The notes under the pieces: model-generated
Database searches by the model: none
Seen by the model: only the letters and a program-made list of their open reading frames with translations
Told to the model about the DNA's origin: nothing
Shown here: positions 1,108 to 56,940 of the stretch, piece after piece
How positions within the stretch are numbered: the first letter of the stretch is position 1
Layout of the letters: the number at the start of each line of letters is the position of its first letter
NCBI GenBank assembly: GCA_965222605.1
Contig: OZ244960.1
Coordinates: forward strand, 3,008,001-3,072,000
Length of the DNA stretch: 64,000 nt
Reading direction: 5' to 3'
From: Candidatus Latescibacterota bacterium
GTDB lineage: Bacteria > Latescibacterota > UBA2968
Translations under genes and position numbers: made by a program

Positions 1108-1142
1108 GCGGTGTACAACTGGCCGACTCTCAGGCCAGTTCA
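1108..1142 (+). repeat. Hairpin mini-element copy A (35 bp)
   Basis: GCGGTGTACAACTGGCC-GACTCTCA-GGCCAGTTCA, nested between the inverted arms CACCCGC / GCGGGTG. Confidence 0.8.
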
Positions 1143-1177
1143 CGCGGGTGCTTCTTTACTTTTCACACTTCACACTT

Positions 1178-2161
1178 CTAAGCTGTCCCAACTTCGCGGG
1201 CGACTTTGGGGCGGCGGAGTTTCCAGATCAGACCATCCAGAACAAAGTGGGCAAACGAAGTCCCATAGGCAAAAAAGAGGAAGGCAAAAAGGGAATAGGT
1301 GTAAAAACCATAGAGAATGCCGCAGATAACAGCGGTAAAGAGAAATGTATTGCGTACAATATGGCTGGCGGCCTTATTGAGAAGTGGCGCGTCAAGAGCC
1401 GATGTGCGGACTTTATTTTTTATCGTAAGCGCGACCAGAGCGATGTATTCAGAAGCGTGATTGATACTGGTGGCAATATAGATGGCGCCAGCCGACAGGG
1501 TGGGACCAATGCCGTAGAGAAAGACCACAGAGCCAAAAAAGAGCAGTTTGGGAACGCTGATACCCTGGGCACCGCGAAATTCATAGACGAGCCAGGCCAG
1601 AGTGACCAGAATAGCCAATCCGTATAAAATGTGGGAGATAAGGAGCGGAGGCGTGAAGTCGAGCAGATTGCGAAGATAGTGCATGACCTTGACATCGGCT
1701 TCAGAACCAAAAAGGTAAAAGAAACCAGCCAAACCCCAGAGATACATCGTCCAGGCATCGAGGCGTTTGTGACCCCATTGAGCTTTGCCCGAGTAGATGC
1801 GGAGAATGCCGTATTTCTGACGAACAAAGTGAAAATAATTAAAAAGGTACCAGAAGGCGAACATCTCGGGTTCGTCAATTCGAAAAAAATAACAAAGACC
1901 CACAAACACAAAGCACAGGATGGGAATAAGCGTATAAAGGACGCGCGCGCGGCTAAATTCAGCGCGATCTAAATAGACCAGCAGAAACGTAAAGTACCGG
2001 TGCGTCGCAAAAAGAAACGTAACAGAGACAATGCGGATGGTATCGAAGTATTTGGGAAACAGGTAGGGGGCAAAAAAGAAAAGCAACCAGCCCAGGGTGA
2101 TGCAGGAAAGATCAACAACGGGCGTAACAACCCAGAGCGTGTGTGTTTTTTCAACGGACAT
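1178..2161 (-). CDS. Uncharacterised polytopic membrane protein with conserved His motifs
   Basis: Many hydrophobic segments, with motifs THRYFT, HFVRQKYG, HASEY and HFVLDGLIWK. Start placed at MSVEKT because the longer ORF overlaps the upstream gene. Confidence 0.7.
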   Translation of the reverse strand: MSVEKTHTLWVVTPVVDLSCITLGWLLFFFAPYLFPKYFDTIRIVSVTFLFATHRYFTFLLVYLDRAEFSRARVLYTLIPILCFVFVGLCYFFRIDEPEMFAFWYLFNYFHFVRQKYGILRIYSGKAQWGHKRLDAWTMYLWGLAGFFYLFGSEADVKVMHYLRNLLDFTPPLLISHILYGLAILVTLAWLVYEFRGAQGISVPKLLFFGSVVFLYGIGPTLSAGAIYIATSINHASEYIALVALTIKNKVRTSALDAPLLNKAASHIVRNTFLFTAVICGILYGFYTYSLFAFLFFAYGTSFAHFVLDGLIWKLRRPKVAREVGTA

Positions 2162-2178
2162 AGGTAGTAATTCCCACT

Positions 2179-2204
2179 TCTTGTATCTTTGTGTCTTTGT
2201 GTGA
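2179..2204 (-). repeat. Short tandem repeat (CACAAAGA/TACAAGA type)
   Basis: Minus strand reads TCACACAAAGACACAAAGATACAAGA, between two genes. Confidence 0.5.
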
Positions 2205-2211
2205 GGCCCTC

Positions 2212-3450
2212 TCACTTCTTTCCCGACCGCAAATCCAGACAAACCATTTCAGTGTGATTACGAAGATACAGTCTGCCATTAGCCAGCGTGGGTGGCGTCC
2301 AGCACCGCGGAGACAAAACCTGAGCGCTGGCTTTTTCTATGTACGCTTCTGGTATCGCCTCCACAAGAGCCAGTTTGCCCTGTTCTCCCAGGACGATCAG
2401 GTACCCATCGGCAAAGATGAGGGACCCCTTCTGAAAGCCGCGTTTGCGCCATTGCTCCTGCCCGGTCTCCGCGGCAATACACTTGAGAATGGCATTGTCA
2501 AAGCCATAGAGGTACCCCTTGCGATGAATAGACGTGGCAAAATGGTTTTTCATACTGCGATTGCGCCATACTTTTTTAACTGCAAACTGGCCGTTTTGAA
2601 AAATAAGCTGGATAACCGCCGCGCCTTTGCCATAGCCCGAAGAGATAAAGAGTCTATCCGGAGCGAGAAAAACAGGCGTCGCGGCATTGACATCGGGACC
2701 CGTTTGCCAGGGATGCCGCCACAAAAGTCGGCCATCTTTGGCAGCGACACCGACCAGACCAGAGACTGGAAAAAAGACGATTTGCCGGATATCAGAAACA
2801 GTAATAGCAATGGGTGACGCATAAGAAGGCGCGTCATCTTGAGAAGTCCATGCAACCCTGCCGGTAGTTTTATCAAAGGCGATAAAGGCTTTTCCAGAAG
2901 AACCCCCAACCTCGACGACCAGCAACTCGCCTTCCAGCAAAGGAGAAGTAGAAAAGCCCCAATGAGGGGGATCACTTATGAATTCAGTTTGAAAATGGTG
3001 AGACCATACTATTTCTCCGTCCTCAACATCAATTGCATAAAGCTGTCCGTTTGCACCCAAAAAGAAAGCCCGTTCTTTGTCAATAATGGGAGTAGATCGG
3101 GGACCGTTCCCGCCCTGCCAGTCTGAAAAATTGCTCCCGGTCTTAACTCGCCAGCGTTCTTGCCCAGTAGCGGCATCGAGACATACCGCGTATTCATCTT
3201 TCCCTTCTGCAAACATGGTATAGACTGCGCCCCGTGCAATGGCAATGCTCGAAAAACCCTCGCCCAGCGGTGTTCGCCAGAGAACAACAGGTCCGGAATC
3301 AGACCATTTTTTGAGCAACCCCGTTTCAGAGGAAACCCCATCGCGATTGGGGCCAAACCACTGCGACCAATCCGCAGCAAAGCCATTGCCCGTCAGGACA
3401 ACAGAGCCTGAGAGCAAGGCAATCAAAAAGGTGATAATGAGGATGCGCAT
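2212..3450 (-). CDS. PQQ-binding-like beta-propeller repeat protein, secreted
   Basis: Signal peptide, DWSQWFGPNRDG N-terminus, repeated LDAxTGxxxW blades, and a C-terminal PxLANGRLYLR. Confidence 0.9.
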   Translation of the reverse strand: MRILIITFLIALLSGSVVLTGNGFAADWSQWFGPNRDGVSSETGLLKKWSDSGPVVLWRTPLGEGFSSIAIARGAVYTMFAEGKDEYAVCLDAATGQERWRVKTGSNFSDWQGGNGPRSTPIIDKERAFFLGANGQLYAIDVEDGEIVWSHHFQTEFISDPPHWGFSTSPLLEGELLVVEVGGSSGKAFIAFDKTTGRVAWTSQDDAPSYASPIAITVSDIRQIVFFPVSGLVGVAAKDGRLLWRHPWQTGPDVNAATPVFLAPDRLFISSGYGKGAAVIQLIFQNGQFAVKKVWRNRSMKNHFATSIHRKGYLYGFDNAILKCIAAETGQEQWRKRGFQKGSLIFADGYLIVLGEQGKLALVEAIPEAYIEKASAQVLSPRCWTPPTLANGRLYLRNHTEMVCLDLRSGKK

Positions 3451-3511
3451 GGGAACTCCTCCTCTGTGTAAGAATCAAGTCACATAATCCGTGATTACTA
3501 TAATATAGGAC

Positions 3512-4555
3512 TTACGCAAGCACCATGTGAATAGTAGGCGCTTTGAGTTGTTGTTTCAAATAATCAGCTAACAAGCCGTATTTGACCTGATAAACGGATT
3601 GTCGTGTTTGATAGGCGACCTGTGCAAATCGCACCCAAACGAGGAAGGCACATCCGATGTGATTGCGAACAATGCGTGGCAATCGACATTGACACTTTTC
3701 AAGACCCGTCACTTGTTTTGCTTCTCGGTGAAATTGCTCAATTTTCCAACGCCAGTGACACGCCTGTTGTGCCACTTGGGTATCGTTTTGGGCCTGGTCG
3801 TTAGTCACGACATATTCCGTGCGTCTGGTAGAAGACATCACCCGAAATAATTTCACTTTATGGTCTCTTGGAAAGCCTCTGATTTTAATGCGTTTGCCAG
3901 CTTTTGTCTCGCTGACCGTCCAATCTAAGCGGTCTATGCGTTGATAGGGTTTAGCACCTGAAGAATCATCCACACGCCGATTCGATTTGAGAGGGCAGTA
4001 ATAGGTTTTTTGCAGTTTCTCAATGTGTAGCATGACCGTCCTGGTGGCATACCAGCTATCCATTAACACGGTCTGAAAAGGCAGTTTTCTGGCATAGACC
4101 AAGACAGATAACATCTCCTGTAGATGATCTAACTTGGTTTTGCCATCCCCCTCAGGGTCATAAATGCGATAGTCAATGAAAAAGAACCGATCCTGATCGG
4201 GATGAACTGCTGGCGCAGTTGTACCCCGTTCGACATAAACGCAAGTGACGACCCCGATGCCGTTGATGACCCCTTTGGCATTGCCGCTATATTGACGCCG
4301 CACCAACGCAATCTTGTGGGCATGACGCTTGTCCAGCACTGTGTCATCGAAGATCACATAGCCCTTTGGGGTCACTTGAATGTGGTCTTTGACGTGTTCC
4401 CACACCAGGCGAGGCGGGATGCGATCACCGGATAGGTAACGGTTGATCATATCATGACTGAACCTTTGGCTGTGGTCTGCGAAATGGGTCAGCGTATAGT
4501 TGATTGGACTGCTCAGCAAATACTGACAGTAATCCAAGCGGGTTGGTTTATCCAT
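3512..4555 (-). CDS. IS701-family DDE transposase
   Basis: Motifs IFDDTVLDK, YSGNA, VLMDSWYA and RWKIEQFHREAKQ. RBS GAGGAGGTG precedes MDKPTR. The stop codon lies inside the left IR. Confidence 0.9.
   Translation of the reverse strand: MDKPTRLDYCQYLLSSPINYTLTHFADHSQRFSHDMINRYLSGDRIPPRLVWEHVKDHIQVTPKGYVIFDDTVLDKRHAHKIALVRRQYSGNAKGVINGIGVVTCVYVERGTTAPAVHPDQDRFFFIDYRIYDPEGDGKTKLDHLQEMLSVLVYARKLPFQTVLMDSWYATRTVMLHIEKLQKTYYCPLKSNRRVDDSSGAKPYQRIDRLDWTVSETKAGKRIKIRGFPRDHKVKLFRVMSSTRRTEYVVTNDQAQNDTQVAQQACHWRWKIEQFHREAKQVTGLEKCQCRLPRIVRNHIGCAFLVWVRFAQVAYQTRQSVYQVKYGLLADYLKQQLKAPTIHMVLA
4203..4229 (-). repeat. Hairpin mini-element copy B (27 bp, in frame within the transposase)
   Basis: Minus strand ACGGGGTACAACTGC-GCCA-GCAGTTCA. 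Encodes the extra peptide in YV-ERGTTAPAVH-PD. Confidence 0.8.
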
Positions 4556-4674
4556 CCTCACCTCCTCGGTGCTCAGGTTAGGCTCCAATCCCGTCAATTT
4601 AAAGATTGGAAAACCTTGGGGCTATTGTTTTGCGTAAGTCCTAATAATAATAAATGGGTGATAAAAAGTGAGAG

Positions 4675-4728
4675 GTAGGAGGAAAATCCTTTTCCCGACC
4701 CGGATCGCGGCAGGGATGCCGCTCCAAC
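4675..4728. repeat. GTAG-type REP pair (REPIN-like, degenerate)
   Basis: GTAGGAGGAAAATCCTTTTCCCGA followed by an inverted copy reading GTTGGAGCGGCATCCCTGCCGCGA on the minus strand. Confidence 0.6.
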
Positions 4729-4750
4729 AGTAGTCTTGAATTGGCCTACC

Positions 4751-4781
4751 TATCCGTGTTCATCTGTGTTCATCTGTGGTT
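4751..4781 (-). repeat. CACAGATGAA tandem repeat overlapping the ankyrin gene stop
   Basis: Minus strand ACCACAGATGAACACAGATGAACACGGATA. It supplies the final TTDEHR* codons. Confidence 0.7.
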
Positions 4782-6007
4782 GCATTTCCCACCCGCTCCA
4801 ATTCCTGAACAACAGCCATATGCCCTTTTGCCCTCGCCCACATCAGGGCTGTAACCCCATCTTTATCCTCAATTGCGACATCGGCACCGCCTCTTAAAAG
4901 CGCGCGGACCGCCTGGACATGTCCTTCAAACGCGGCGGCCATCAACGGCGTGCGGCCCTCGCGGTCGGGCGCATTGACATTTGCGCCCACTTCCAATAAA
5001 AACTCGATTCGTGCGGTTTCACCATCCCAGGCTGCACCCATCAAAGCCGTATTCCCCATATTGTCCCTAACGTTGAGATCTGCGCCACCTGCCACAAGCA
5101 CCCGCACAATTTGGCGATGATCTCGTAAAACAGCCCGCATCAAAGGCGTTTCGCTGGCACTACCTCTAATATCGGGAATTCCGCCTTTTGTCAGAAGCGT
5201 ATCGACAATAGCGGTATGACCTTTGAACGCGGCCAGTAGCATGGGAGAATCGCCAAAATTATCCCTGGCATTGGGATCAGCACCTACATTCAGGAGGGCA
5301 TCCACCATATCTGTTTGACCTTCGACTGAAGCCCAGGTGAGAGCCGTCCGGTTGTCCTTATCTCTGATATTGGGATCCGCACCGTTTTCAAGGAGAACTT
5401 TCACTGCATACGTATGACCTGCAACAATCGCGCTCATCAGAGCCGTGCGCTCGTCGTTGTCCTGCGCGTTGACATCCGCGCCCGCGTCTATCAGAGCTTG
5501 AAGCGTAGTTGTGTGACCTTCTACTGCCGCGGGCATCAACGCAGTGGCTCCATGGGTGTTTTTTAAATGGAGATTCGCGCCTTTTTTCAGGAGAACGTTG
5601 ACGATATCTGTATGCCCATCAAAGGCAGCGGACATCAAGGCGGTGGCACCGTGTTTGTCCTGAATATTGGGGTCAGCTTTGCCCGACAAAAGGGCCTGCA
5701 CCGTCTGGATATGTCCTTGAAAAGCCGCGACAATCAAAGCCGTTTCCCCGCTCATACCCTGAGCATTGGGATCGGCACTTTTTTTTAAAAGCGCATTGAC
5801 GATATCTGTATGCCCACCTCTGGCTGCAACCATCAGCACGGTAGTACCGTATTTGTCCCGAGCATTTGCATTATCGCCAGCACTTAGACGCGCCTGTACA
5901 CCGGACAGGTTTCCCTTTGCTGCGGCTTCGAGGAGTTGTGTGCCATTGGCATGCGCCGCTGCAGAAAGGCTGAGGACAAGGAGAAATGTAAAGGTAATCC
6001 TGGACAT
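4760..6007 (-). CDS. Secreted ankyrin-repeat protein (about 11-12 repeats)
   Basis: N-terminal signal peptide followed by consecutive 33-aa repeats GxTALMxAAxxGHxxxVxxLLxxGADxN. Confidence 0.95.
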   Translation of the reverse strand: MSRITFTFLLVLSLSAAAHANGTQLLEAAAKGNLSGVQARLSAGDNANARDKYGTTVLMVAARGGHTDIVNALLKKSADPNAQGMSGETALIVAAFQGHIQTVQALLSGKADPNIQDKHGATALMSAAFDGHTDIVNVLLKKGANLHLKNTHGATALMPAAVEGHTTTLQALIDAGADVNAQDNDERTALMSAIVAGHTYAVKVLLENGADPNIRDKDNRTALTWASVEGQTDMVDALLNVGADPNARDNFGDSPMLLAAFKGHTAIVDTLLTKGGIPDIRGSASETPLMRAVLRDHRQIVRVLVAGGADLNVRDNMGNTALMGAAWDGETARIEFLLEVGANVNAPDREGRTPLMAAAFEGHVQAVRALLRGGADVAIEDKDGVTALMWARAKGHMAVVQELERVGNATTDEHR

Positions 6008-6066
6008 ATAGAAAAAGTAAAAGGTCCCCGAAAAAAGTCAAAGAAGATTCGGCGTCCAATTCATGC

Positions 6067-6940
6067 TCACGGAACGGGAATATTGAGATCAAAGGTCTGG
6101 CCGAGCCACTGATAGTAGAAACGTTGTGATGTGTCTTGCAGAATCTGGTCTTTCCAGCCAGCGGCAAGACGTTCGACCTCGGCAGTATTGCCGGCCATAC
6201 ACAGCGCGTAAAGATACAGGTAGCGTAGCGCCGGATCGGCAGACTCTGCGCGTTGGTAATACTGTGCAGCCAGAGTATAGTCGCGCTCGGCCAGCGCGCG
6301 TGCAGATAGATAGGGAAGATAAGGCGTTTCCGCATCGCCCTTTTTCAAGCGGGTATCAACCGCATAGAGCAGATCGTCCTGAATCTGGAGATGCCACAGC
6401 GGGAGAGTCCGCAAATCGGTCTGCGTGTGAAGCGTGTGAAGCGTAGCGATGCGAGTCCCCTGATCATGTATTTCGTCAGCCTGGGAAATTAGTGCAGCCT
6501 CGAGAAGGCGCTGTGCTTCAAAATAAACGAGCGTGCGCATCCGCATGTCATGAGGCCAGGCATTGTGAATAAAGGTACTCTTTTCAAAGCGCTCGCGAGT
6601 GAGCAGGGGATTCATCCAGCGGGCGTAGAACGCTTGATGGGGTTCGCGGTTAAAAAAACCCACAGAAAGGCGTTTGGGATAATTATCTACCAGCGGCGGG
6701 GTATCGCGCGTGAGCGCGTTGAGATGGTCGGCGTCAGACATAAAGAGCGCACCGAGTTGCTCGGGTTGCTCCAAACCGAGGGCGCGAAGTTCGGAACGCA
6801 CGACAGGATCGCGCCACTGTCGGCTAAAAAAGACCTCAGATAGGGAATAGGACGCATTTCGAGAGCCAGCGAGCATCCAGTTAAAACCCGCCCCAGCCCA
6901 AAGAGAAGCGTCTTCAAAAACATTGCAAAACGCGCGGATG
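6067..6940 (-). pseudogene. C-terminal fragment of a fused membrane/spermidine-synthase-like protein (5' truncated)
   Basis: Frame extends upstream of the annotated ATG as IRAFCNVFEDASLWAGAGFNWMLAG, followed by TPPLVDNYPKRL. No N-terminal part is present; the frame hits a stop near 6985. Confidence 0.6.
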
Positions 6941-7855
6941 GGCAGACTTCGGACGTCCCTGCAAGATGTGGCGGTCCATGATGATTACGGGCTTGAGGTC
7001 ACTGTAAACGATTTTGAGGCAATAGACTTTGAATTGAACCCCAACCGCTCCCGTTTTGGCACCACATCTTACAATCAGGTAAGCACTGACCGCTACCAGC
7101 CTACAATGGAAGTATATTACGGCGTACCCCTGGCAAATTTGCCAGACAGCGTTCAGGCGACTGGCATTTTGGAACGGGGTATTGCGGTATTTGACAGCAC
7201 ATGGAGACCGGTCTATCGAAAGATGGCTCCCCTGCCTTTTTCGGTGGATGCGATGGGTTCGCTGGGAGCGGGAGATCTTGCCGTTGATCAAATCGCGCTC
7301 AATCTACAGCCGGGCAACTATCACCTGGGGGTGGAGGTACGCAGTCTGCAAGGCAATCTGCGGGGTGCTTATACCCGGTCGCTAACAGTGGAGCCATATA
7401 CAGGTCCTTCGCTGATGCTTTCCGACATCGAGATGGCCGGTCTGGTGGTGCAAGACCCTTCCTCAAAAGTAAAAGGGGGACACAAAGTCGTGCCTATGCC
7501 ATCCAAAACCTATTTACCGGGACAACCTGTGACGATTTATTACGAGGTCTATGGGTTGACACACGACGAATTGGGTCAAACGCACTACCAGATGGATTAC
7601 AAAATATCACCCCGCAAAGGCAAACCCCTGGCAGTGACGATTTTGCGCGCGGTCGGAAAACTCCTGGGTATTGAACAAAAGAAAGTGGTAACGATTTCTT
7701 ACGAGCAGACAGGCACGCAGAAAACAGAACACAATTATCTGGAGATTGACGTGAAGGGATCAGAGGCGGGGCGCTATGAATTAGAGGTGGCAGTGACGGA
7801 TTTGAATACGGGAACAATGGTCGCCAAGGACGTAATATTTTTTATTGCCAGGTAG
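6923..7855 (+). pseudogene. C-terminal fragment of a GWxTD-type protein (5' truncated paralog of 1-1044)
   Basis: Shares LMLSDI, PMPSKTY...YYEVYGL, QTHY and GKLLGI...ISYE with the protein at 1-1044. It has no RBS or N-terminal domain, and its 5' end overlaps the opposite-strand fragment. Confidence 0.6.
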
Positions 7856-7868
7856 CCACCATTGAGCA

Positions 7869-9317
7869 TCAAGCACCGCTATACGCTCTGGCGAAATAGG
7901 TCTGGAACCCTTCTGGCCCGGGCCAGCCATCGAAAAGACGGCAATTCTCGGGCACCTGACCTTCTGCGCCGTTTTTGAGCCAGTCAATCAGAATGGGATC
8001 AGCACCTCGGCGCTCGAGTTCAGAAAGGCCAGCGGTTTGCAGGTTCTGGACGCGGTCGGGATGTTCCGCCGCCGTATTGTCCAGCGACCCATAAGGCGTG
8101 AGCATACAGTCTTCTAATTCCGGTTGCCATTCCAGGTATCCGTCCTGGTCGAACACAGTGAAAAATCCGCGCTGTTTTGCCCATCCCCGGGCAGTGCCCG
8201 CAAGCGCGAGTTGCCGCATCCCCGCACTGCCTTCCCGAGCTGCGGTGAGAATGTCGTGGCTGTCCAGGTTCCCCGGAATTGGCGCACCCGCCAGATTGGC
8301 GACAGTAGCGAAAAAATCCTGCGGTTGAAAAATCGCTGAACTGCGTCCCCTGTCGCCTTCGGGGGTTTTGATAATGAGCGGGATGTGGATTTCCTGCTCG
8401 TACACAGGCGCGTACTTGCCAAAGTGCCCGCGTTCACCAACATTGGTACCGTGATCGCCAGCGACAATAATAGCGGTATTTTTGCTCAGGCCAGTGGCGT
8501 CAAAGGCTTCGAGAAACCGCCCAAGGCAGTGATCCATCCAGGTGACTTTGGCGGCATAACTCGCTTTGAGGCGAGCTTTGGCTTCATCGGGCAAATTGGG
8601 ATTGTTGCGCCCCCCACCCTGAAAAGCGCGGGGATCAAGCCGCCCATCGTAACCGGGGGTTTTGTCGTATTTCAGCATAAAAGCCGGAGGTACATCCCAC
8701 GGTTCGTGGGGATCGAAACAGTCAATCCACAGGAAGAAATTTTCCCGCCGCGCATTATCCCGTAAGAATTGGGCTGCGGTATTGAACAGCTTGGCGCAAT
8801 TCCAGTCGTCTGTGTTTGTGCGCCCCCGGTTGGTACGGGCATACGTGTAGTTGTGTTTTGTCAGATCCGCGTCTTCTCCCAGAACATCGAATACGGGGTC
8901 TCTGCACCAGTTGCTCGGCCACTGTGCTTCGTCGTCCATCCATGCGCGGTCAACTTCTGCACCGCGAATAAACGTCCAGGTGTGGAACGGATAATCAAAT
9001 GCGTGCCCACCGTTGACGAGATGAGGCGTATCGTGAATGAGTTGTGTCGCGTATCCCGCCTCGCCCAGCACAGAGGGTAGGGAGCGCGTGTCAAAAGGCA
9101 GGGGTTTCCAGGTGTGGAACGGACTGCCGTATTTTCCGGTCATAACATCCGTGCGATAGGGGATGGTGGGAAAACTGGCGGCAAAAGCGCGGTCAAAACA
9201 CCATGATTGTGCGGCTAATCGGTCGAGGTTGGGCGTTTCTATCCAGTCATTTCCATTAGCACCAATATAATCGTAGCGCATCGTATCAATAATAATGAGA
9301 ACAATATTCATGGACAC
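7869..9317 (-). CDS. Sulfatase-like (alkaline phosphatase superfamily) hydrolase with Thr at the formylglycine position
   Basis: Motifs NIVLIIIDTMRYD, TPNLDRLA, SFPTIPYR, DPHEPW and GDHG. Confidence 0.85.
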   Translation of the reverse strand: MSMNIVLIIIDTMRYDYIGANGNDWIETPNLDRLAAQSWCFDRAFAASFPTIPYRTDVMTGKYGSPFHTWKPLPFDTRSLPSVLGEAGYATQLIHDTPHLVNGGHAFDYPFHTWTFIRGAEVDRAWMDDEAQWPSNWCRDPVFDVLGEDADLTKHNYTYARTNRGRTNTDDWNCAKLFNTAAQFLRDNARRENFFLWIDCFDPHEPWDVPPAFMLKYDKTPGYDGRLDPRAFQGGGRNNPNLPDEAKARLKASYAAKVTWMDHCLGRFLEAFDATGLSKNTAIIVAGDHGTNVGERGHFGKYAPVYEQEIHIPLIIKTPEGDRGRSSAIFQPQDFFATVANLAGAPIPGNLDSHDILTAAREGSAGMRQLALAGTARGWAKQRGFFTVFDQDGYLEWQPELEDCMLTPYGSLDNTAAEHPDRVQNLQTAGLSELERRGADPILIDWLKNGAEGQVPENCRLFDGWPGPEGFQTYFARAYSGA

Positions 9318-9332
9318 CTCCCCCCGCTATCT

Positions 9333-10109: not shown

Positions 10110-10120
10110 ATCTCCCTCTT

Positions 10121-12139: not shown

Positions 12140-12259
12140 TGTGTTAACCTTTCCTGAAGAGTAAAAAAAGCATTGTGAACCGTTTCAACGTCTTATATTA
12201 AAGACAACGGATCAATTTAAGAGCATTTATACACATCGGCAACCGTTAAAGGAGGGTCT

Positions 12260-13492: not shown

Positions 13493-13496
13493 AAAA

Positions 13497-16785: not shown

Positions 16786-16798
16786 GGGGCGCCTCCAG

Positions 16799-16825
16799 GC
16801 GGTGTACAACTGCGTCAGCAGTTCA
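16799..16825 (+). repeat. Hairpin mini-element copy C (27 bp)
   Basis: GCGGTGTACAACTGC-GTCA-GCAGTTCA between tmk and ctpA. Confidence 0.8.
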
Positions 16826-21844: not shown

Positions 21845-21860
21845 TGTTTCACGTGGAACG
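21845..21860. promoter_or_regulatory. parS centromere-like site 1
   Basis: TGTTTCACGTGGAACG versus consensus TGTTNCACGTGAAACA; at the rsmG 3' end, near oriC. Confidence 0.85.
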
Positions 21861-21892
21861 GTTTACAACTGGTCGCAGTCCAGACCAGTTCA
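21858..21892 (+). repeat. Hairpin mini-element copy D (35 bp) in parS1; supplies the rsmG stop codon
   Basis: ACGGTTTACAACTGGTC-GCAGTCCA-GACCAGTTCA. Confidence 0.8.
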
Positions 21893-22575: not shown

Positions 22576-22591
22576 TGTTTCACGTGAAACG
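22576..22591. promoter_or_regulatory. parS centromere-like site 2
   Basis: TGTTTCACGTGAAACG, 15/16 match to TGTTTCACGTGAAACA, between mnmE and rsmG. Confidence 0.9.
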
Positions 22592-22623
22592 GTGTACAAC
22601 TGGTCGTTTCTCAGACCAGTTCA
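22589..22623 (+). repeat. Hairpin mini-element copy E (35 bp) in parS2
   Basis: ACGGTGTACAACTGGTC-GTTTCTCA-GACCAGTTCA. Removing it restores the perfect palindrome ATGTTTCACGTGAAACAT. Confidence 0.85.
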
Positions 22624-42411: not shown

Positions 42412-44376
<1,965 letters not shown>

Positions 44377-44718: not shown

Positions 44719-44726
44719 AGTCTTAC

Positions 44727-46996: not shown

Positions 46997-47203
46997 GGAT
47001 GCGATTCTCCCGAGCGCGTCAAGCCCTTTGTAAATGATTTTTATGGCGTTGAATAGAGCGTTTTTTCAGGATAAAAAATGATTGATTTTTTATTCAATTA
47101 CAAACACCATAATTTACTGAATTTTAACGGTTTTGTCAACCTTACTTTTTGTTCGAAAACTCCTTTTTATCCCTGAGAATTGTCGAACAAAAAGATGCAA
47201 AAT

Positions 47204-47257
47204 TCAAACTGTTCTAAATTCACGTCGTTCAGTGAGCCATACCCCTTTGCAATGACC
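47204..47257 (-). repeat. Diverged duplicate of the addA 3' end
   Basis: Encodes WLTERREFRTV* versus WLTERREFRAI* at the addA end (48002-48056). Confidence 0.8.
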
Positions 47258-47292
47258 TTGATTTGTGCATCATTTGTGCATATCTTTGTTTT

Positions 47293-47574
47293 ATGAATTA
47301 TCAATGGGACCCAGAAAAGGCAGAATCAAATTTCCTTACACATGGTGTTGATTTCGCTGACTCAGTAGGAGTATTTGAGGATATCTGGGCATTGACCTTG
47401 AAAGAAGAGATTGAATCGGGTGAGCAACGATTTGCCACTCTTGGTACCGATTTCTTTGGACGAATTTTGGTTGTCGTTTATACATATCGAAACGAAGACA
47501 TCCGTTTAATTTCCGCTCGCCCCGCAACGCGTCGGGAAAGGAGAATATATGAAAAAAAAAGAATATCATTTTGA
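47293..47574 (+). CDS. brnT: BrnT family toxin
   Basis: Motifs YQWDPEKAESN..HGVDF, EQRF and IRLISAR. Confidence 0.9.
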   Translation: MNYQWDPEKAESNFLTHGVDFADSVGVFEDIWALTLKEEIESGEQRFATLGTDFFGRILVVVYTYRNEDIRLISARPATRRERRIYEKKRISF

Positions 47575-47809
47575 AACCGCCCAACAAGGCCCTGTCGTCC
47601 AGCCACCACCCGGCAAGACGCGTATCACCATTCGCCTTGACACAGATGTACTGAATTGGTTTAAGAAACAGGTTCATGAAGCAGGGGGCGGAAATTATCA
47701 GACGCTTGTGAACCAGGCCCTCAGAGAACACATCCAGGCTAACAATGGAGTATTGGAACAAACACTACGCAAAGTCATTCGCGAAGAACTCAGTTCACGC
47801 GCAGTCTAA
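47549..47809 (+). CDS. brnA: BrnA family antitoxin
   Basis: KTRITIRLDTDVLNWFK...GNYQTLVNQAL; overlaps brnT. Confidence 0.9.
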   Translation: MKKKEYHFETAQQGPVVQPPPGKTRITIRLDTDVLNWFKKQVHEAGGGNYQTLVNQALREHIQANNGVLEQTLRKVIREELSSRAV

Positions 47810-47810
47810 C

Positions 47811-47849
47811 ACAAAGACGCCGATGCCTGGGTAGCATCGGCGTCTTTGT
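47811..47849. terminator. Strong hairpin/terminator after brnA
   Basis: ACAAAGACGCCGATGC-N7-GCATCGGCGTCTTTGT, a 16-bp perfect stem. Confidence 0.8.
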
Positions 47850-47928
47850 TCGTAAACGATAGTGGCTATTCTATCACAGCGGTTTTGAACGTCCTTCTGA
47901 AGCGCGCGTCTGAGCATGGGAAGAGAAT

Positions 47929-47954
47929 TGAATTTCTGCGAAGTTGTACACCGC
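47929..47954 (-). repeat. Hairpin mini-element copy F (26 bp)
   Basis: Minus strand GCGGTGTACAACTTC-GCA-GAAATTCA. Confidence 0.7.
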
Positions 47955-48001
47955 TCCGATTAAAGTCACACATGACGTTAATTTTTATTAAACGCCATCT
48001 T

Positions 48002-51000: not shown

Positions 51001-51220
51001 TTAATTCACTGAAAAATCGCCCGCGCATTTCACCTGCTGCTTTGCGCGTAAAGGTGATTGCCGTCAGGTGATCTACGGCTACCACACCTGTTTGCACCGC
51101 GTTCGCCATCCGTTGCACCAGCGCGTGGGTCTTTCCCGCGCCTGCCCCTGCGAGCACCATCATATTTTGATCCAGTGCTTCGGCAATTTTATCGCGTGCT
51201 TGTTGATCTCGAAGGTTCAT
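48002..51220 (-). CDS. addA: AddA-like UvrD helicase with C-terminal RecB-type nuclease
   Basis: Motifs AGAGAGKT, TFTRKAA, VDEFQD, GDGKQSIYRFR, HQAKGL, YVAATRA and GVIDL...VDYKT. Start at MNLRDQ overlaps the addB stop. Confidence 0.9.
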   Translation of the reverse strand: MNLRDQQARDKIAEALDQNMMVLAGAGAGKTHALVQRMANAVQTGVVAVDHLTAITFTRKAAGEMRGRFFSELKSRAKNADGQDLHRIQKALEKVDQCFIGTIHSFCGQLLRERPVEAGLPPDFSEVEEREEAVMRREAWDRFVQQCFLSEDPQLAKFEELGLRPEDLYGFFQRRCLFSDVPLVSESVQKPDLSTAVSKLKAFLQRAGAYIPDPLPGRRDALQTALTRARLFLSNRGIHSDADRIALLQILTGNLSVTLKSWAPNQDFAKHLRDTLLSEFQAETLDPTLTKWRQYIYQFAAPYVDDAVEEYARTRRESGRLTFQDLLELAARLLRDHPEVRHHFQDRYRCLFVDEFQDTDPIQAEILLYLTGENLEEPDWRKLTPRPGSLFLVGDGKQSIYRFRRADVETFDLVRKRIDDTNGDIVNLNTNFRSVSHLCDWINAAFEPLFAAHEKPYQAEFAPLFKYRPDGENFAVRRISIDKVYRNSRSQIATEDADQIANFIAAAIEGKTEFNGAGETAALPPKASPGDFLILTRTSGSLSHYAQALEKCGIPFDITGGNRLGEADVLHTLTDFLETVYMPDNPLPLLAYLRGDLVGLGDDTLYAFKKAGGDFNWTRDLPKGMDRKLHRTFEQAYDHLKKASKWLQSLSPDAAIARCVEKLGLLPFVRALPMGATHAGNLIRILSLVREWSAQGLHWGQVVTELRALIDDRDYKIEQMTLSSAQEDVVRLMNLHQAKGLQGKIVFLADPYDTSYTRYGPEFHVSRTSDEPFLALPITKPRGPYQREVVAEPVGWEDAEAEETRFLQGEELRLLYVAATRAENLLIISTYEEKPDHGPWSPLYPHLKNVPELAKYPTIEAPPLETRPFSLEHEQRDHFWKVVKKESFEVAQVTDDRADIAYLDERRSVAGKGAAYGTVVHQIFDDAINMRLPADPTPYVIHLLNEAGADTAFLPHALDALQHFRNSEIWAEIQASETVYTEVPFAVPQTVNNSSPNNIIRGVIDLVYRLPKGWKIVDYKTNAVKTDEDVQALCEQTADQVNTYAKHWENFTGETVIAKGLWLTERREFRAI

Positions 51221-54180
51221 ACTCCCATCCAGCGATTCAGGCTGTCCAGCAAGGGCGCGAAGTCGGGATCGTCGTCCATTGTTTCGCGCGCGGCGGCGAG
51301 GGCGTTGGCGTCCAGACGTTCTTTGCTGCAGACGCGGTTGTAGATGCAGTAGTCGCACTCCTGGGATTTTTGAATGTGAAAAAAGCCGCCTCTGGCTGTT
51401 AGTTCGAGCAAGGGGCGCAACACATTGGCGAGTGCTTCGGGCGTTGGTGGTGCGTCAGAAAGCCGACGGCCGTGTTCTCTATCGCCGGGGAAGACGTAAC
51501 CGGACAATTGTACGCGATTGGATTCATGTTGTTGTTTTAGAATCGAATTCAGGGCATAGGCGTACAATGCCCATTGCAAATGCGTGCCGCGTTTGAGCAA
51601 GTCCTGTTCGTCGTATTGCGCCATTGATCCGGTTTTGTAATCCCAAATTACAAAGTTGTCCTCAACGCGGTCCACGCGGTCAATGCGCCCGCGGATGCGG
51701 AAGCTGACATCTTCTGCGAGTTCGAGTGTTACGGGTGCTTCGCTATTTAGTCCGCCTGATTCGCCAAATCCGAAACTTACTTCAAATCCGATAGGATCGG
51801 CATTTTTTTGATCGGATTCGACGGCCAAAAATACCTGCGCGGCTTGTGATAGGCGTTTGACATCGGCGCGATACGCCGCTTCATGCTCAACGGGATGGGT
51901 TTCTTTTTTGGCTTCTATTTCTTTTTGTAGAAGTTCCTGGATAAGTGTGCCATGTCGGTCGCGGTCAGGGCGTTCGCCTCGCGCTTTCAGGAGTTGCATA
52001 AATTTGTGAAAGAGCGCGTGTAATAATGCGCCATAGGACAGGGGATCGAGCCATCGCGTGGGATCAGATTCGGCTTTTTCTATGGGCTGAATTTCGAGCA
52101 CATGGTTCAAAAAATACCGGTATGGACATCGGGCGAGCATTTCCAATTTTGAGGGTGAAAATATGCGGTGCTGTGCTGTAATCGCCAATTCGGGTGTGGG
52201 CGCGCCCAGCCAGCCATCGTAGGTTGTCATCCCGCTCCATTCACGCGCGTCGCGCGCCTTTTGTCCAGAAACCAGATAGGGGAATATCCGATTCACAACG
52301 GATGCGTAGTCGGCAGAGGGATAGTGTGCGAGCAATGTCTCTGCATCGTCCAGCGCCTGTGCAGATGTTTCGGGCAGTGCTCGTGCAAGTTCAGGGGCAA
52401 TTTTCATCTGTTCGGCTGCTTGCTGAAAGAGTGCGGCGGGATAGCGTTCCCGACTATCGGATAGGCTTCGGTGGCACGATAACAATGTCACTTTGTTAGA
52501 TGCCATGCCCAATACGCGAATGAGATGCCACACTTGCTCGGCGGGTCGCGTGCGGCGCAATTCCAGTTCGCGCGATACGCCCGAGCGCTCGCCATCTAAT
52601 AACATGGGGTCTTCTGTGGCACCACCGGGGAACGTGGCTTCATCCATGCCTATGACATAGATATGTGGGCGATTGGTATATCCCGCGCGTGAAAGCGGGG
52701 CAATCGATAGGTGCCCGGGTTTGGCTGCTTCGGCTTTAAAAGAGAGGTTGGCGGTCAATTCAGATAGACGGTTTGCCAATCGGCGTGCTGGTGCTTTGCG
52801 GCGCACGGATTGGGCCACATGGTGCAGGCGATCCCCAAGCGCGGTGAGGACCTCATCTTCGGCGTTTCCAAAATGTTCGAGAAATTGCAAGCCAGCATCA
52901 ACCAATGCGTCAGGCGATACATTGGGTCCTCTGGGGATCAGATCGAATAAGCGTTTGAGTTCTTCTTCAACAGCTTCAACTTCCCCAAGTGTCAATCCGC
53001 GATGGCCGGTTTCCGAGTTTTCGGCTTCTCTGTGGCGCATGTCGGCTTTTATTTGGTTCAGGGCCATAAAATAACGCGCAGGATCCCCGTCAATCCGCGC
53101 TTGTTGGAGGACGGTTGCAATTACAGATGCGTTTTCAGAGGCAATCAGACCCGCGCGGCACATCATTACGAGTTCGTCTGCGGGGTATCCCGCGCCCAAC
53201 CAGCGGTAAAAATTCACCAATGCGCGACCGGTTCGGGTTGTCGCTATCGGTATGCCTTCGGCAAATGTGGCGGGTAGTTCAAATCGCTGAACCGCATCGC
53301 ACAACAGGCTCACATAAGGCATTTCTGAGGTGTAAGCGATTTCGACGGTATCCAGGGGTATGTGTCCCGATCTTATGTCGCGCAATACGGTGCTGATTTC
53401 TGTTTCGGTGCCGAGGGTTTCGCACAGTTGAATTTGAGAAGTGTCCCTGGGGAACAGTCCCAATGTGAATATGTTTCCGCCCGCTCCGATTTTGCCTGTG
53501 GCGGCGGGAAAGGGCGCTTTGGGAAAGCGCCTTGCTGCACTGTGTGGCGGGGGCGGTACACCCATATTATTTCGCCCGATGCGCCAGATTTGTCCCTGTG
53601 ATTTTTCGCGTAGATAGTCGAATGCCAGCCTGGGTAATGGGGTTTCATCGAGGATGGCATAGTAAGTATTTTGTGGGGGTGATTTTAGATGTGTCAAAGC
53701 GCGTTGATACAATACGGCGTTGTCGTAGAGGTTATCTCTCTCAAATGTCGCGCAGTACGCCTGATAAAGTCGCTGTAATACCTGATGCCGCAGGCCTTTC
53801 GCAGAGAGCGAGTCGGGTTCCAATCCCGCTGCACGCAGAACGCGCAATGTGCGCAAAAAAGGGCGCGTGAGCGCGGTGGCCTGTTGTGCGAAGTAGTCAT
53901 CATTGATTTCGCGCACGGCGTGGGGGATCATTTCGTCCAGCCAGAATAGATCCGCATCTTGTGCCATGCGCGAATGCCCCTCTGCGATGAGATGGGCACC
54001 CGCATCTTTTTCCGCGAGACTGCGCGGGGTCTCAATCTGCAAGTTCAAATAGGAATAACCCGTTGCCGCAAGTGCGATTGTCAGGTCGTGTCCTGCGGTC
54101 ATGGTAGGGACAATCAGGACTTTTGCTTCAATTGGGTGGGCGTCACAAAATGTTTCTATTTGTGCGAGGTGGTATTGCAT
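51217..54180 (-). CDS. addB: AddB-like inactive helicase/PD-(D/E)XK nuclease with Fe-S cysteines
   Basis: Motifs FSPSKLEMLARCP, GRIDRVD...DYKTG, QWALY and CDYCx5C. Confidence 0.88.
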   Translation of the reverse strand: MQYHLAQIETFCDAHPIEAKVLIVPTMTAGHDLTIALAATGYSYLNLQIETPRSLAEKDAGAHLIAEGHSRMAQDADLFWLDEMIPHAVREINDDYFAQQATALTRPFLRTLRVLRAAGLEPDSLSAKGLRHQVLQRLYQAYCATFERDNLYDNAVLYQRALTHLKSPPQNTYYAILDETPLPRLAFDYLREKSQGQIWRIGRNNMGVPPPPHSAARRFPKAPFPAATGKIGAGGNIFTLGLFPRDTSQIQLCETLGTETEISTVLRDIRSGHIPLDTVEIAYTSEMPYVSLLCDAVQRFELPATFAEGIPIATTRTGRALVNFYRWLGAGYPADELVMMCRAGLIASENASVIATVLQQARIDGDPARYFMALNQIKADMRHREAENSETGHRGLTLGEVEAVEEELKRLFDLIPRGPNVSPDALVDAGLQFLEHFGNAEDEVLTALGDRLHHVAQSVRRKAPARRLANRLSELTANLSFKAEAAKPGHLSIAPLSRAGYTNRPHIYVIGMDEATFPGGATEDPMLLDGERSGVSRELELRRTRPAEQVWHLIRVLGMASNKVTLLSCHRSLSDSRERYPAALFQQAAEQMKIAPELARALPETSAQALDDAETLLAHYPSADYASVVNRIFPYLVSGQKARDAREWSGMTTYDGWLGAPTPELAITAQHRIFSPSKLEMLARCPYRYFLNHVLEIQPIEKAESDPTRWLDPLSYGALLHALFHKFMQLLKARGERPDRDRHGTLIQELLQKEIEAKKETHPVEHEAAYRADVKRLSQAAQVFLAVESDQKNADPIGFEVSFGFGESGGLNSEAPVTLELAEDVSFRIRGRIDRVDRVEDNFVIWDYKTGSMAQYDEQDLLKRGTHLQWALYAYALNSILKQQHESNRVQLSGYVFPGDREHGRRLSDAPPTPEALANVLRPLLELTARGGFFHIQKSQECDYCIYNRVCSKERLDANALAAARETMDDDPDFAPLLDSLNRWMGV

Positions 54181-54191
54181 GAAATCATTCC

Positions 54192-56660
54192 TTATTCATA
54201 TCGCAATATCTCAACGGGATTTGTTCGGGCGGCTTTCCACGCCTGTGTGCTTACGGTTAATAGCGCGATCCCAAATGTCAGGAGGCTTCCCAGCACAAAT
54301 GGGGTTGCGCTGAGTTCAATCCGATAGGCAAAATGCTGCAACCATTGATCCATTGCCAGATAAATTATCGGATAGGCGATTAGATTTGCTATTCCGACGA
54401 GTATGACAAAGTCTCTGCACAGCAGTATTACGAGATTCCAAACGGACGCGCCCATTACTTTGCGTATGCCTATTTCCCGTGTGCGCTGTTCTGCGGTGAA
54501 GGCCGCCAGCCCCAATAGCCCCAGACACGCTACAAAGATCGCGATGACAAATGCCGCGCTGAATATTTGCCCCGTGCGCTGGTCGTCCCGATACCAGCGT
54601 TCCAATTCGTCGGCCGCAAAGGCGATGGCAGGCGAGCGCGTGGGAAGAAATTGCGACCAGGTGCGTTGTAGAAATGCCATTGTTTCTGAGATTTCTTGCG
54701 GACGAATCCGCATGGAGAGGTGGCTGAGGCGATACCACGCCGCTGTGATGACCAATGGCTCGATGGTTTCGTAGAGGTGTCGATAGTGAAAGTCTTTGAC
54801 TACGCCAATTACATGTCCTTTTCGGACGTGTGAGTTCAACACTTTGCCTATGGGGTCTGTCCAGCCAAATACCTTTGCTGCGGTTTCGTTTATGACGAAT
54901 AATTCGCCGGGTTTGCCGCGTCTTTCCCACGCGCGTTCCGCATAAATGCGGTCGTAATTTCGCCCGGATAGCAGGGGAATGTCGTAGCAGTCTATAAATG
55001 TCTCGTCTGCGCCAAATACCCGCACTTCAACGCCCCGATCCAGATCGCCTTCTGGGAAGAACCACTCGCGGTTGGGCCAACTATGTCCCGGCAAATCCGA
55101 TGTTGCCGATGCGGTTGTGATGTTCGGGTGCTGTGAGAAGGCGTCTCTGATCTTAAGATACCGTTTTTGCAACTGTCCGCCATCACTTAGATATCGGTCT
55201 TGTCGGAAGATAGAGGCGACGACGACTTCATCTTTGTTAAATCCCAGGTCTTTTTCCCGGATCAATCGCATCTGATCGGCTACGATTATGGTTCCGATGA
55301 CCAGTACAATCGAAATGGCAAATTGTAATACGACGAGTGCTTTTCGCACGCAGGCCTGGGCTGAGCCGGCTTTGATTGACCCGCCCTTCAAAACGGTCGC
55401 GGGTTCGAATGCAGAGAGGTAGAGTGCGGGATAGCTTCCGGATAATAGTCCGACAAACAGGGTGATTCCGAGTATCCAAAGGGTCAATCCCCTGTCCAGC
55501 ATCAGGTTTTCCTGCACAAATGCGCTGAATGGGGGCAGTGCGAGATATACCAATCCGAGTGCTATACATGCGGATAGGGATGATAATAGCAGGGCTTCGC
55601 CCAGGAATTGCTTTATTAGATGCGAGCGAGACGCGCCTACGACTTTTCGCAGCCCTACTTCTTTTGCGCGGCTGGCGGATCGGGCTGTGGAGAGGTTCAT
55701 GAAGTTGATACAGGCTATTGTGAGGATGAAAAATCCCACGAGTTCCAGCAAATAAATTTGTTGTATATCTTTGTAGGGTCTTCCCGCATCGCCCGTGAAT
55801 CCGGGCATATCGATTTTGGAATACAGGTGCATGCGCGGCACGGGATGGAGATAATAGCGTACGGTTTCGCTTTCGTCTTCTGCGATTTCCGCGTAGCGTT
55901 CGACCAGTTCCGGTAATTTCCGGGCGATATCTTCGGGTTTGGCATCGGGTTTCAGGCGCAGGTATGTATTTGCCGGGCGCGAGTACGATGGCGGCAACCA
56001 GTGATCCCACGATCTGCGCTGGCGCACGCCCTGTGGCATGGTGGCGGTGATGAAGTCGTATTGAAACCGAGAGTTGTGTGGTGCTTGTCGAATGACGCCT
56101 GTGATTTGATATGTGCCGCCAAATAGGCTGTGATCTACTGTGATTGTTTTGCCGAGTGGATCGGTAGTCCCAAAAAATTTTCGTGCGATGGGCTCTGTTA
56201 TGACGACCGAAAATGGGTTTTGTAATACGGTTTTGGGATCGCCTGCCAATACGTCAATACCGAAGAACGCAAATATATTGGGATCACTTAACCAGAACAT
56301 CTGTTGAAACGATTTTTCCCCAGCGTTCACCCATCTGAGACCAGCCCAAAACCGCGTTGCGTCTTCTATTTCTGGAAATTCTTCGGGCAGTACGGTCGCC
56401 AGTGGTCCTTGCTGGCCCGTGTTCCATGCAATCCGCCCGTTTGCATGTCGGGTTTGTTTCATGACGCGGTAGGTGCGCGCTACTTCTGGGCGAAATTCGT
56501 CGTAGCTCAGTTCATAGGAGATGTAAATCGCGAGCAATACCGCACACGCTATTCCGAGTGCCAGTCCCGACAGGTTGATCAATGAATAGCCGGGATGTCT
56601 CAGCAGGTTTCGGATGGCGATGGTGAGGTAGTTTTTTCCGAGGTAGAGCGTTTGTTTCAT
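54192..56660 (-). CDS. ABC transporter permease (duplicated MacB-PCD/FtsX architecture)
   Basis: Motifs KNYLTIAIRNL, ACINFMNLSTARS, KEVGLRKVVGA, GVVKDFH, EIGIRKVMGA and NPVEILRYE. Confidence 0.92.
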   Translation of the reverse strand: MKQTLYLGKNYLTIAIRNLLRHPGYSLINLSGLALGIACAVLLAIYISYELSYDEFRPEVARTYRVMKQTRHANGRIAWNTGQQGPLATVLPEEFPEIEDATRFWAGLRWVNAGEKSFQQMFWLSDPNIFAFFGIDVLAGDPKTVLQNPFSVVITEPIARKFFGTTDPLGKTITVDHSLFGGTYQITGVIRQAPHNSRFQYDFITATMPQGVRQRRSWDHWLPPSYSRPANTYLRLKPDAKPEDIARKLPELVERYAEIAEDESETVRYYLHPVPRMHLYSKIDMPGFTGDAGRPYKDIQQIYLLELVGFFILTIACINFMNLSTARSASRAKEVGLRKVVGASRSHLIKQFLGEALLLSSLSACIALGLVYLALPPFSAFVQENLMLDRGLTLWILGITLFVGLLSGSYPALYLSAFEPATVLKGGSIKAGSAQACVRKALVVLQFAISIVLVIGTIIVADQMRLIREKDLGFNKDEVVVASIFRQDRYLSDGGQLQKRYLKIRDAFSQHPNITTASATSDLPGHSWPNREWFFPEGDLDRGVEVRVFGADETFIDCYDIPLLSGRNYDRIYAERAWERRGKPGELFVINETAAKVFGWTDPIGKVLNSHVRKGHVIGVVKDFHYRHLYETIEPLVITAAWYRLSHLSMRIRPQEISETMAFLQRTWSQFLPTRSPAIAFAADELERWYRDDQRTGQIFSAAFVIAIFVACLGLLGLAAFTAEQRTREIGIRKVMGASVWNLVILLCRDFVILVGIANLIAYPIIYLAMDQWLQHFAYRIELSATPFVLGSLLTFGIALLTVSTQAWKAARTNPVEILRYE

Positions 56661-56688
56661 GGGATATAGGTGTGATGTGTGAAGTGTG

Positions 56689-56718
56689 ATCCGCAGATGA
56701 CGCAGATGAACGCAGATA
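56689..56718 (+). repeat. CGCAGATGA(A) tandem repeat
   Basis: ATCCGCAGATGACGCAGATGAACGCAGATA, related to the repeat at 4751-4781. Confidence 0.7.
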
Positions 56719-56762
56719 AAAAAGAGGGGCTGGGGACTGGGGGCTGGTTGGACGTTGGTGGT

Positions 56763-56796
56763 TGTCATCGCGGCATGCTGTTGAGCCGCGATCCAG
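56763..56796 (+). repeat. CGTC/TGTC-type REP-like palindrome
   Basis: TGTCATCGCGGC-ATGCTGTTGA-GCCGCGATCCAG. Confidence 0.6.
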
Positions 56797-56886
56797 AAGG
56801 TTTTGACTGTCCCGCGCAGCACAACGCAGTCATCCAGTTCTTTTCATCATACTCAGAGATTTTCATTCGTTCAAGGGTTTTTTCGT

Positions 56887-56940
56887 TGAACTACTCCCCG
56901 CTTACCCCATACAGGGACATGCATTGCAGTGGTACACCAT
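56887..56940 (-). repeat. Hairpin mini-element copy G (54 bp, degenerate, long interior)
   Basis: Minus strand ATGGTGTACCACTGC...GGGGAGTAGTTCA. Confidence 0.5.

Follow-up and report, generated by a model that had tools for sequence, protein, structure and literature searches.

A dispersed family of hairpin mini-elements and its junction rule in one genus of Candidatus Latescibacterota

What are the short, hairpin-forming stretches that recur in the origin-containing part of a Candidatus Latescibacterota genome, and how did they come to lie there? The window analyzed here is a stretch of 64,000 nucleotides (nt), bases 3,008,001-3,072,000 of a single 6.34 Mb contig (OZ244960.1, assembly GCA_965222605.1), which contains the origin region with rsmG, mnmE and dnaA. 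An earlier note on this DNA had listed seven stretches with common ends and different interiors (here copies A to G), and had proposed either a minimal element mobilized by an HUH enzyme or a class resembling repetitive extragenic palindromes (REPs). These stretches lead to a real, dispersed family of structured mini-elements that insert into unrelated sites according to a constant rule. We consider it probable that the family represents a non-autonomous, ultra-small insertion element of the REP or small-dispersed-repeat (SDR) kind, confined to one genus of Candidatus Latescibacterota.

The genome was scanned for a 10-nt tag (≤ 2 mismatches), at least three stem pairs and GTTCA (≤ 1 mismatch), with the reversed genome as control. 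The full scan resulted in 102 hits against 23 in the control; for hits of at most 46 nt, the numbers are 76 and six, the latter being non-canonical. Four doubtful rows (genome positions 353288, 1352148, 3898051 and 5378217) were dropped, leaving 72 copies, 67 of which have distinct flanks. The genome search thus confirms the family, with approximately 72-76 copies, far above the control. A unit is composed of four bases of the form RRRY, the tag GGTGTAC, a hairpin (AAC-stem-loop-stem-GTT) and a final CA. Units fall into three size classes: those of 24/25 nt have an upper stem of 3 bp and a GNA or GNNA loop, those of 33 nt have an upper stem of 5 bp and a loop of 8 nt, and the third class measures 46 nt. 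Across the 67 copies, T, A and C of the GTAC in the tag are near-invariant, and RRRY is mostly GAGC, GAAC or AAGC. Flank positions in these copies are G (40) at -5, G (46) or A (17) at -4, A (52) at -3, G (33) or A (29) at -2, and C (48) or T (13) at -1; position +1 is T (34), A (18) or C (15) and never G. The picture is the same in 71 distinct-flank copies from relatives, with 5' extensions GAGC (15), AAGC (15), GAAC (11), GGGC (8) and GAAT (6), and T (46), C (22), A (2) or G (1) at +1. Copies are mostly intergenic: 15 out of 72 lie in a long spanning open reading frame (ORF), compared to 1567 of 2000 random windows. They generally stand singly, the only close inverted pair being located at genome positions 4940781/4940863.

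To avoid circularity, stem statistics were derived from hits picked by two anchors alone. Among 40 unique hits of the 33-nt class, positions 1-5 of the upper stem form Watson-Crick pairs in 31-35, and the type of pair switches between copies: T-A in 29 and G-C in six at position 1, G-C in 29 and C-G in four at position 3, and T-A in 17, C-G in 11 and G-C in three at position 4. The loop is closed by G·A in 27 of the 40. Such G·A-closed mini-loops are typical of stable DNA hairpins. The 25-nt class follows the same pairing logic, and the base of the hairpin is always AAC...GTT, below a covarying upper stem of 3-5 bp. That the interiors differ yet keep pairing, as noticed earlier for the window, is therefore upheld genome-wide. 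Since the pairs are kept while their types switch, the hairpin is under constraint, be it at the level of DNA or of RNA.

To compare filled and empty sites, the genome was searched by BLAST with the 120-nt flanks of every copy and, in reverse, for empty sites with the 60-nt flanks of copies from relatives. Nine independent host contexts with filled and empty paralogues were identified in the genome, and all nine obey the same junction rule: an empty X-AA-Z or X-AG-Z becomes X-RRRY-element-Z when filled. The net gain is the element plus two nt in seven contexts and the element plus one nt in two. Unrelated sites share a 3' end that is identical to the base, and the element always takes the same orientation with respect to the strand carrying AA; of the two junctions, the 5' one varies and the 3' one is sharp. 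Target duplication is absent from all nine contexts and the flanks lack in-register identity, in agreement with the earlier note. Fixed-register direct repeats were considered and rejected, as the left and right 10 nt share 2.27-2.63 matches at shifts 0-4 against approximately 2.5 in permuted pairs. Only shift 6 is raised (3.22 versus 2.54, 0 of 1000 permutations), which reflects host arrays of 7-9-mers.

The cleanest and youngest case, at genome position 5848193, lies inside a DDE transposase gene for which five empty copies with 98% identical flanks exist (three were read at the junction). Copy B is likewise inserted in a transposase ORF, where it turns the codon AAT into ten codons. The gain of 27 nt (nine codons) is in frame and the ORF is open with or without the insert, so that its removal does leave an in-frame transposase, as had been claimed. 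An identical filled copy of this insertion sequence is located at genome position 3723864, and the site is empty in two old paralogues of this genome. Among relatives (genomes are cited by our handles G, loci by L), 19 out of 19 copies of the insertion sequence in G002, G016 and G010 are empty (18 loci read), with AAT in 17 and CAT in two. The empty state is therefore ancestral and the AA is no scar. At two loci of G016 (L183 and L187), the empty sequence has C for the first A of the target codon; this C matches the right junction of the filled copy and could be an excision scar or a plain substitution.

Other hosts show the same polymorphism. Four copies of an IS256-like transposase gene are filled and four are empty, and copies of one TnpB element also occur in both states. 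Sites that are empty here and filled in relatives follow the same rule (L067/L138, L078 and L112), with less clean examples at L091, L129 and L137. Copies are also nested in each other; the inner copy invariably occupies the loop of its host and runs on the opposite strand. Such cases lie at genome positions 4034021 and 4279282 (an empty paralogue is located at 3526419), and two more were seen in G014, one of them at the parS site of mnmE, for which G000 and G004 show the empty state. Where the element is inserted in unique coding sequence, the flank of a donor is absent. Altogether, the nine contexts, the pairs with relatives and the nested copies substantiate the earlier suggestion of real insertion.

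Three types of target context were found, namely tandem arrays of 7-9-mers, apexes of hairpins and loops of other copies, and the target AA is preceded by G, often by GTG. For the most part, the bases at these places are probably unpaired. Array units hosting the element are GTGAAGN, GAATTAR and AATAGACG, and in G010 AAAGGCACA; an array stays in phase once RRRY and the element are removed and AA is restored. Arrays of GTGAAGN, GAATTAR and AATAGACG are common in intergenic DNA (window 1150-1180; genome 4671393-4671474, 5007190-5007330 and others). Among the hairpins occupied at their apex are a GTAG-tagged REP, two further hairpin repeats and stems resembling terminators, as at copy A and at genome positions 1748458 and 4294721. 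The GTAG-tagged REP family has GGGCG...CGCCC stems and flanks a gene resembling REP-associated tyrosine transposases (RAYTs) in the region 3942096-3942650 of the genome. It also adjoins copies of the element (also at 1101688 and 6210722), and in relatives the element is found in the loop of such REPs. Another dispersed hairpin repeat, with arms ...AAAAACGCGAGT and TTTGAGCGTTTT... around an apical AA, hosts the element at this AA in many copies and species (genome 484270-484440, 4572191-4572264 and 6294533-6294594; L073, L078 and L112 in relatives). A piece related to this repeat is inserted in the tag of the parS-adjacent copy in G015, G002 and G003.

The chromosomal parS sites are a particular case. 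Using a 15-mer from the window as query (≤ 2 mismatches, CACGTG core), the genome search returned only two parS-like sites; they lie in the window, each abutted by a copy (D and E). Read against what we take to be the parS consensus, reversal of the junction rule produces a perfect 16-nt palindrome at copy E and a palindrome with one departure at copy D. Insertion hardly disrupts the site, because 15 of its 16 positions are rebuilt by the AAAC or GAAC of the element itself. Every relative examined (nine searched, three of them aligned) carries copies at both sites, hence these insertions are old; G004 has a further copy on the other side of the rsmG site. The earlier claim that removal restores a perfect parS is thus correct for copy E, with the qualification that little had been broken and that the event is not recent. 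Occupancy of two out of two sites is far above chance for some 72 copies distributed over many GTGAA sites, and may reflect either a hot target or retention. The target rule would also account for the association, as GTG-AA is where the element enters and the site is rebuilt by it.

The distribution of the family was determined with the pattern GTACAAC-N(9-32)-GTTCA over 53 genomes of the order, 21 of one genus and 32 others. All 21 genomes of the genus exceed their controls (27-326 hits versus 3-16), while the other 32 are near control level (2-18 hits versus 0-26). One listed hit in G026, which belongs to a different family, looks like a genuine member of the 33-nt class. When prokaryotes were scanned for the exact pattern, with one genome for each species, at least 110 stretches were returned, and all 80 among the matches listed are titled Candidatus Latescibacterota or uncultured Latescibacteria. 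No match was obtained in viral contigs searched with both size classes. Copy number differs approximately tenfold between species of the genus, with most pattern hits in G010 (326), G016 (209) and G014 (178). The hits of G010 are largely amplified composite repeats, because most of the 100 listed share at least 12 nt of flank or stand in 38-nt tandem arrays. In one such array (C1:1841447-1841611), the 38-nt period joins a 27-nt form of the element to 11 nt from a host repeat of 9-mers, and dozens of G010 loci have these composite flanks in common.

All seven stretches listed for the window are present (Table 1) but differ in quality, with canonical copies A to E, a degenerate F and a doubtful G. 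In the window, four matches to the strict pattern GTACAACT-N(4-30)-AGTTCA compare with 0.01 expected, and none of 100 shuffles reaches four. As single-stranded DNA, copies A to E fold into the expected hairpin (z -1.9 to -3.1), with unpaired tails of 11 nt at the 5' and 2 nt at the 3' side. Copy A occupies the tip of an inverted repeat that resembles a terminator and lies downstream of an ORF, and copy C is situated between a thymidylate kinase gene and an S41 peptidase gene. On the minus strand, rsmG uses the last three bases of copy D as its stop codon, and copy E adjoins its parS site 3 nt beyond the mnmE stop codon. In copy F, one stem pair is broken and the expected fold was not obtained (z -0.5); an intact sibling is the copy at genome position 5848193. 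Copy F lies inside a stretch of approximately 750 bp that is missing from G004 and G014, and the alignment with G009 also breaks there. This stretch carries a BrnT toxin/BrnA antitoxin pair, with copy F at its edge, and is bounded by imperfect direct repeats of approximately 50 nt. Copy G has no predicted hairpin (z +0.7) and is a doubtful, degenerate member; the orthologous stretch in G014 is present and diverged.

Table 1. Positions of the copies and of associated features in the window.
Feature	Position	Strand	Description
Copy A	1106..1142	+	33-nt class (1110-1142); 5' extension GCGC
Copy B	4203..4231	-	25-nt class (4203-4227); extension GAAC; within DDE transposase ORF
Copy C	16797..16825	+	25-nt class (16801-16825); extension AGGC
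Copy D	21856..21892	+	33-nt class (21860-21892); tag GGTTTAC; extension GAAC
Copy E	22587..22623	+	33-nt class (22591-22623); extension AAAC
Copy F	47929..47956	-	degenerate 24-nt class (47929-47952); extension GAGC
Copy G	56887..56942	-	doubtful; element part 56887-56938; tag GGTGTACCAC (C for A); 31-nt interior
Host insertion-sequence transposase ORF (DDE_5 / DDE_Tnp_1)	3512..4597	-	carries copy B
ORF upstream of copy A	49..1044
parS-like site	21845..21860		adjoined by copy D
parS site	22576..22590		adjoined by copy E
Stretch with copy F	47253..48000		missing from G004 and G014
BrnT toxin gene	47263..47574	+
BrnA antitoxin gene	47549..47809	+

The element is itself a landing pad for a subfamily of IS110 insertion sequences. 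IS110-family matches occur in eight of the 21 genomes of the genus, among them G010 (57), G018 (18), G016 (7), G004 (7) and this genome (4). Two of the four copies here (genome 3341160-3342768 and 4319157-4320765), encoding a transposase of 445-453 amino acids, interrupt the tag of the element precisely at GGT/GTAC; the third lies in an element-like remnant and the fourth could not be assigned. The same GGT/GTAC junction is displayed by five of six loci read in G004, in four element types (L204, L212, L216, L220 and L224), and by none of the 18 loci of the shorter IS110 types of G010, G016 and G018. According to an excerpt of PMC12288879, REPs likewise serve ISPpu9 as target.

To account for these observations, we infer a single-stranded intermediate, in which tag and hairpin would be recognized as a folded strand by an enzyme acting in trans. 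This enzyme would cut directly 5' of RRRY and directly 3' of GTTC(A), and the piece would be joined in a single orientation, replacing an unpaired A-A or A-G dinucleotide without target duplication. The preferred targets are apexes of hairpins (REPs, terminators or the loop of another copy) and 7-9-mer arrays containing G-AA. Once inserted, copies also spread passively, through carrier insertion sequences, composite repeats and tandem amplification.

Candidates for such an enzyme were sought among the mobile elements of the genus. Reverse transcriptases (PF00078) were rejected, being present in nine of the 21 genomes and in neither this genome nor G018, and so were IS91-type Y2 enzymes (PF04986), present in one of 21. 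IS110, present in eight of 21, was rejected as well; it sits inside the element where its junctions were read, so the element is its target and not its cargo. One TnpB subfamily carries a 25-nt element in its left-end region, which raised the option that the element is the end of a TnpB insertion sequence; other TnpB subfamilies are empty at that place, hence the element is a passenger. Long copies with the same ends enclosing tnpA, tnpB or a RAYT gene, as envisaged in the earlier note, were looked for at 35 TnpB ORFs and among the genes between close pairs of copies, and none was found; the genes between close pairs have no shared feature. The genome holds these 35 TnpB (IS605 OrfB) matches, one of them just past the window (genome 3072828-3073967), versus one IS200-type TnpA, and the hairpins beside the latter resemble the left-end hairpin of some TnpB elements.

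Mobilization by an HUH enzyme, the first option of the earlier note, would make the element a one-hairpin derivative moved by an IS200/IS605 TnpA or a RAYT, with the palindromic GTAC directly 5' of the hairpin as a guide pairing with the cut sites GARC and GTTC. The REP-like layout, with the tag 5' of the hairpin, and the lack of target duplication are in line with this, as are the G·A-closed loops, and judging from the letters GARC and GTTC may each form three of four antiparallel pairs with GTAC. Moreover, one IS200-type TnpA (354357-354836) and two RAYT-like genes, all of the Y1 type, are present in this genome, but the element was not found in the flanks of any of the three, which are occupied by other hairpins. 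A search for Y1 (PF01797) gave no match in eight of the 21 genomes of the genus (G004, G012, G006, G014, G016, G052, G010 and G017), including the three with most hits, and RAYT-like proteins occur in only eight of the 20 other genomes of the genus, yet in eight of ten other genera. This absence is weakened as an argument by the composite repeats that make up much of the G010 count, and copies in Y1-free genomes could be fossils. IS200/IS605 elements favor the lagging-strand template, whereas the element is oriented evenly with respect to replication (36 leading, 36 lagging). Furthermore, two target bases are lost, a single hairpin replaces the two subterminal ones, and RRRY is not a retained target motif because it is absent from empty sites. 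As HUH mobilization fails on co-occurrence, strand bias and target motif, we regard it as unlikely.

Alternatively, no enzyme may be involved, and copies may arise by template switching or microhomology copying at stalled forks, followed by amplification, recombination and hitch-hiking. Such a process would suit the variable 5' and sharp 3' junctions, the frequent G at -5 and the GTG often left of the target, the strong association with 7-9-mer tandems and hairpins, the 38-nt arrays of G010 and the multiplication of filled insertion-sequence copies. Microhomology would, however, give ragged ends on both sides, whereas the 3' end is invariant, the orientation constant and the rule identical in nine contexts, and insertions in unique coding sequence came without donor flank; we therefore rate this explanation as quite improbable. 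A host function, in which the hairpin is kept for protein binding, parS/ParB, transcription ends or mRNA stability and its spread is secondary, would not exclude the other explanations. In its favor, every relative examined has kept the copies at both parS sites, compensatory changes maintain the stem and most copies are intergenic. Against this, Rfam has no match, transposase ORFs and other copies serve as hosts, species differ about tenfold in copy number, and the parS association also follows from the target rule. Orientation relative to neighboring genes is unbiased as well (tandem same 19, tandem opposite 15, convergent 9, divergent 9, based on a crude gene call). Host function is hinted at by the parS association only, and as the primary explanation we consider it very unlikely.

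Several points weigh against a non-autonomous insertion element moved in trans. The number of copies overstates the number of independent insertions, because many share at least 12 nt of flank (approximately 14 of 71 in the set from relatives). Since no enzyme was found, the core of the mechanism is inferred. RRRY varies among copies with identical cores, which fits poorly with a fixed boundary and could point to a polar copying process. To our knowledge, replacement of two target bases is not the signature of any characterized transposase family. The copies at parS are old and orthologous rather than recent. For the window copies A, C, F and G, alignments with relatives provided no clean orthologous empty site; in the case of A, C and F, this is because orthologous intergenic sites are often unalignable.

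Compared with known systems, the element is closest in layout to REPs and bacterial interspersed mosaic elements, which are likewise short hairpins, located mostly outside genes, whose 5' tag is constant and whose stem varies. Their copies also number from tens to hundreds and form mosaics with other short motifs, and IS110-family elements target them (PMC12288879). In contrast, the REP tag is GT[AG]G and that of the element GGTGTAC, with GTAC at its core; REPINs are inverted doublets and copies of the element are single; and a REP has a cognate RAYT flanked by the repeat, while the element has none and RAYT-like genes do not track it. The element also differs in that its insertion rule can be read at base level from empty sites. 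Of the proposed REP-like class, the layout of a constant 5' tag followed by a variable hairpin is therefore retained, and the features that define the REP/RAYT system are not.

Elhai et al. (2008; Genome Res 18:1484) reportedly described SDR4-6 of Nostocaceae as hairpin-forming repeats of 21-27 nt that insert into other repeats, SDR5 into the highly iterated palindrome HIP1. We know of no mobilizer for these SDRs. By this definition, the element is alike in size (24, 25 and 33 nt), in nesting and in insertion into repeats. The hosts, Nostocaceae and Latescibacterota, belong to different phyla. According to PMC5861425, HIP1-rich cyanobacteria other than Nostocaceae yielded no SDR.

Like IS200/IS605 elements and their palindrome-associated miniature derivatives, the element inserts in a specific orientation without target duplication, and recognition of a hairpin is plausible. 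It differs in having one hairpin instead of a left-end and a right-end hairpin, and in losing AA/AG where IS200/IS605 retain a target tetra- or pentanucleotide at the left flank; the hairpins of the resident TnpA and TnpB elements are also different in sequence. Miniature inverted-repeat transposable elements moved by DDE transposases have terminal inverted repeats and a fixed target duplication, whereas the ends of the element match over only 4 bp (GAAC...GTTC) and no duplication is made. In integron attC sites, AAC and GTT triplets form the base of the folded hairpin, as they do here. However, attC sites measure at least 57 nt, compared to 24-46 nt for the element, whose outer boxes are unpaired and whose copies are dispersed singly instead of in cassette arrays. 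By our reasoning, the permutation expected from the AA|C crossover of attC also mismatches the observed junctions. No description of the element was found, consistent with the earlier note not recognizing a named family: Rfam at gathering score gave no match in the window, none of the papers listed in a search of the Latescibacteria literature dealt with such repeats by title or start of abstract, and the 12-mer of the tag led only to two unrelated eukaryote papers.

At 28-37 bp, these hairpins rank among the smallest mobile DNA known, and how REP-like repeats below 50 bp spread is a long-standing open question. Here, many of the 21 genomes are single contigs, the junction rule is sharp, nested and polymorphic copies are at hand and the usual mobilizers are negative, which together make a comparative hunt for the mobilizer feasible. 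A bolder and, in our estimation, unlikely possibility is that the family represents a new transposition chemistry, in which a genus-specific enzyme outside the families tested (Y1 and Y2 HUH, reverse transcriptase, IS110) would substitute a folded strand of 28-37 nt for an unpaired purine dinucleotide at the tip of another hairpin, and the two parS sites would be preferred because they are extruded or opened. The family adds a natural target of IS110-family elements outside Proteobacteria, and it places a mobile element on both chromosomal parS sites of this organism without destroying them.

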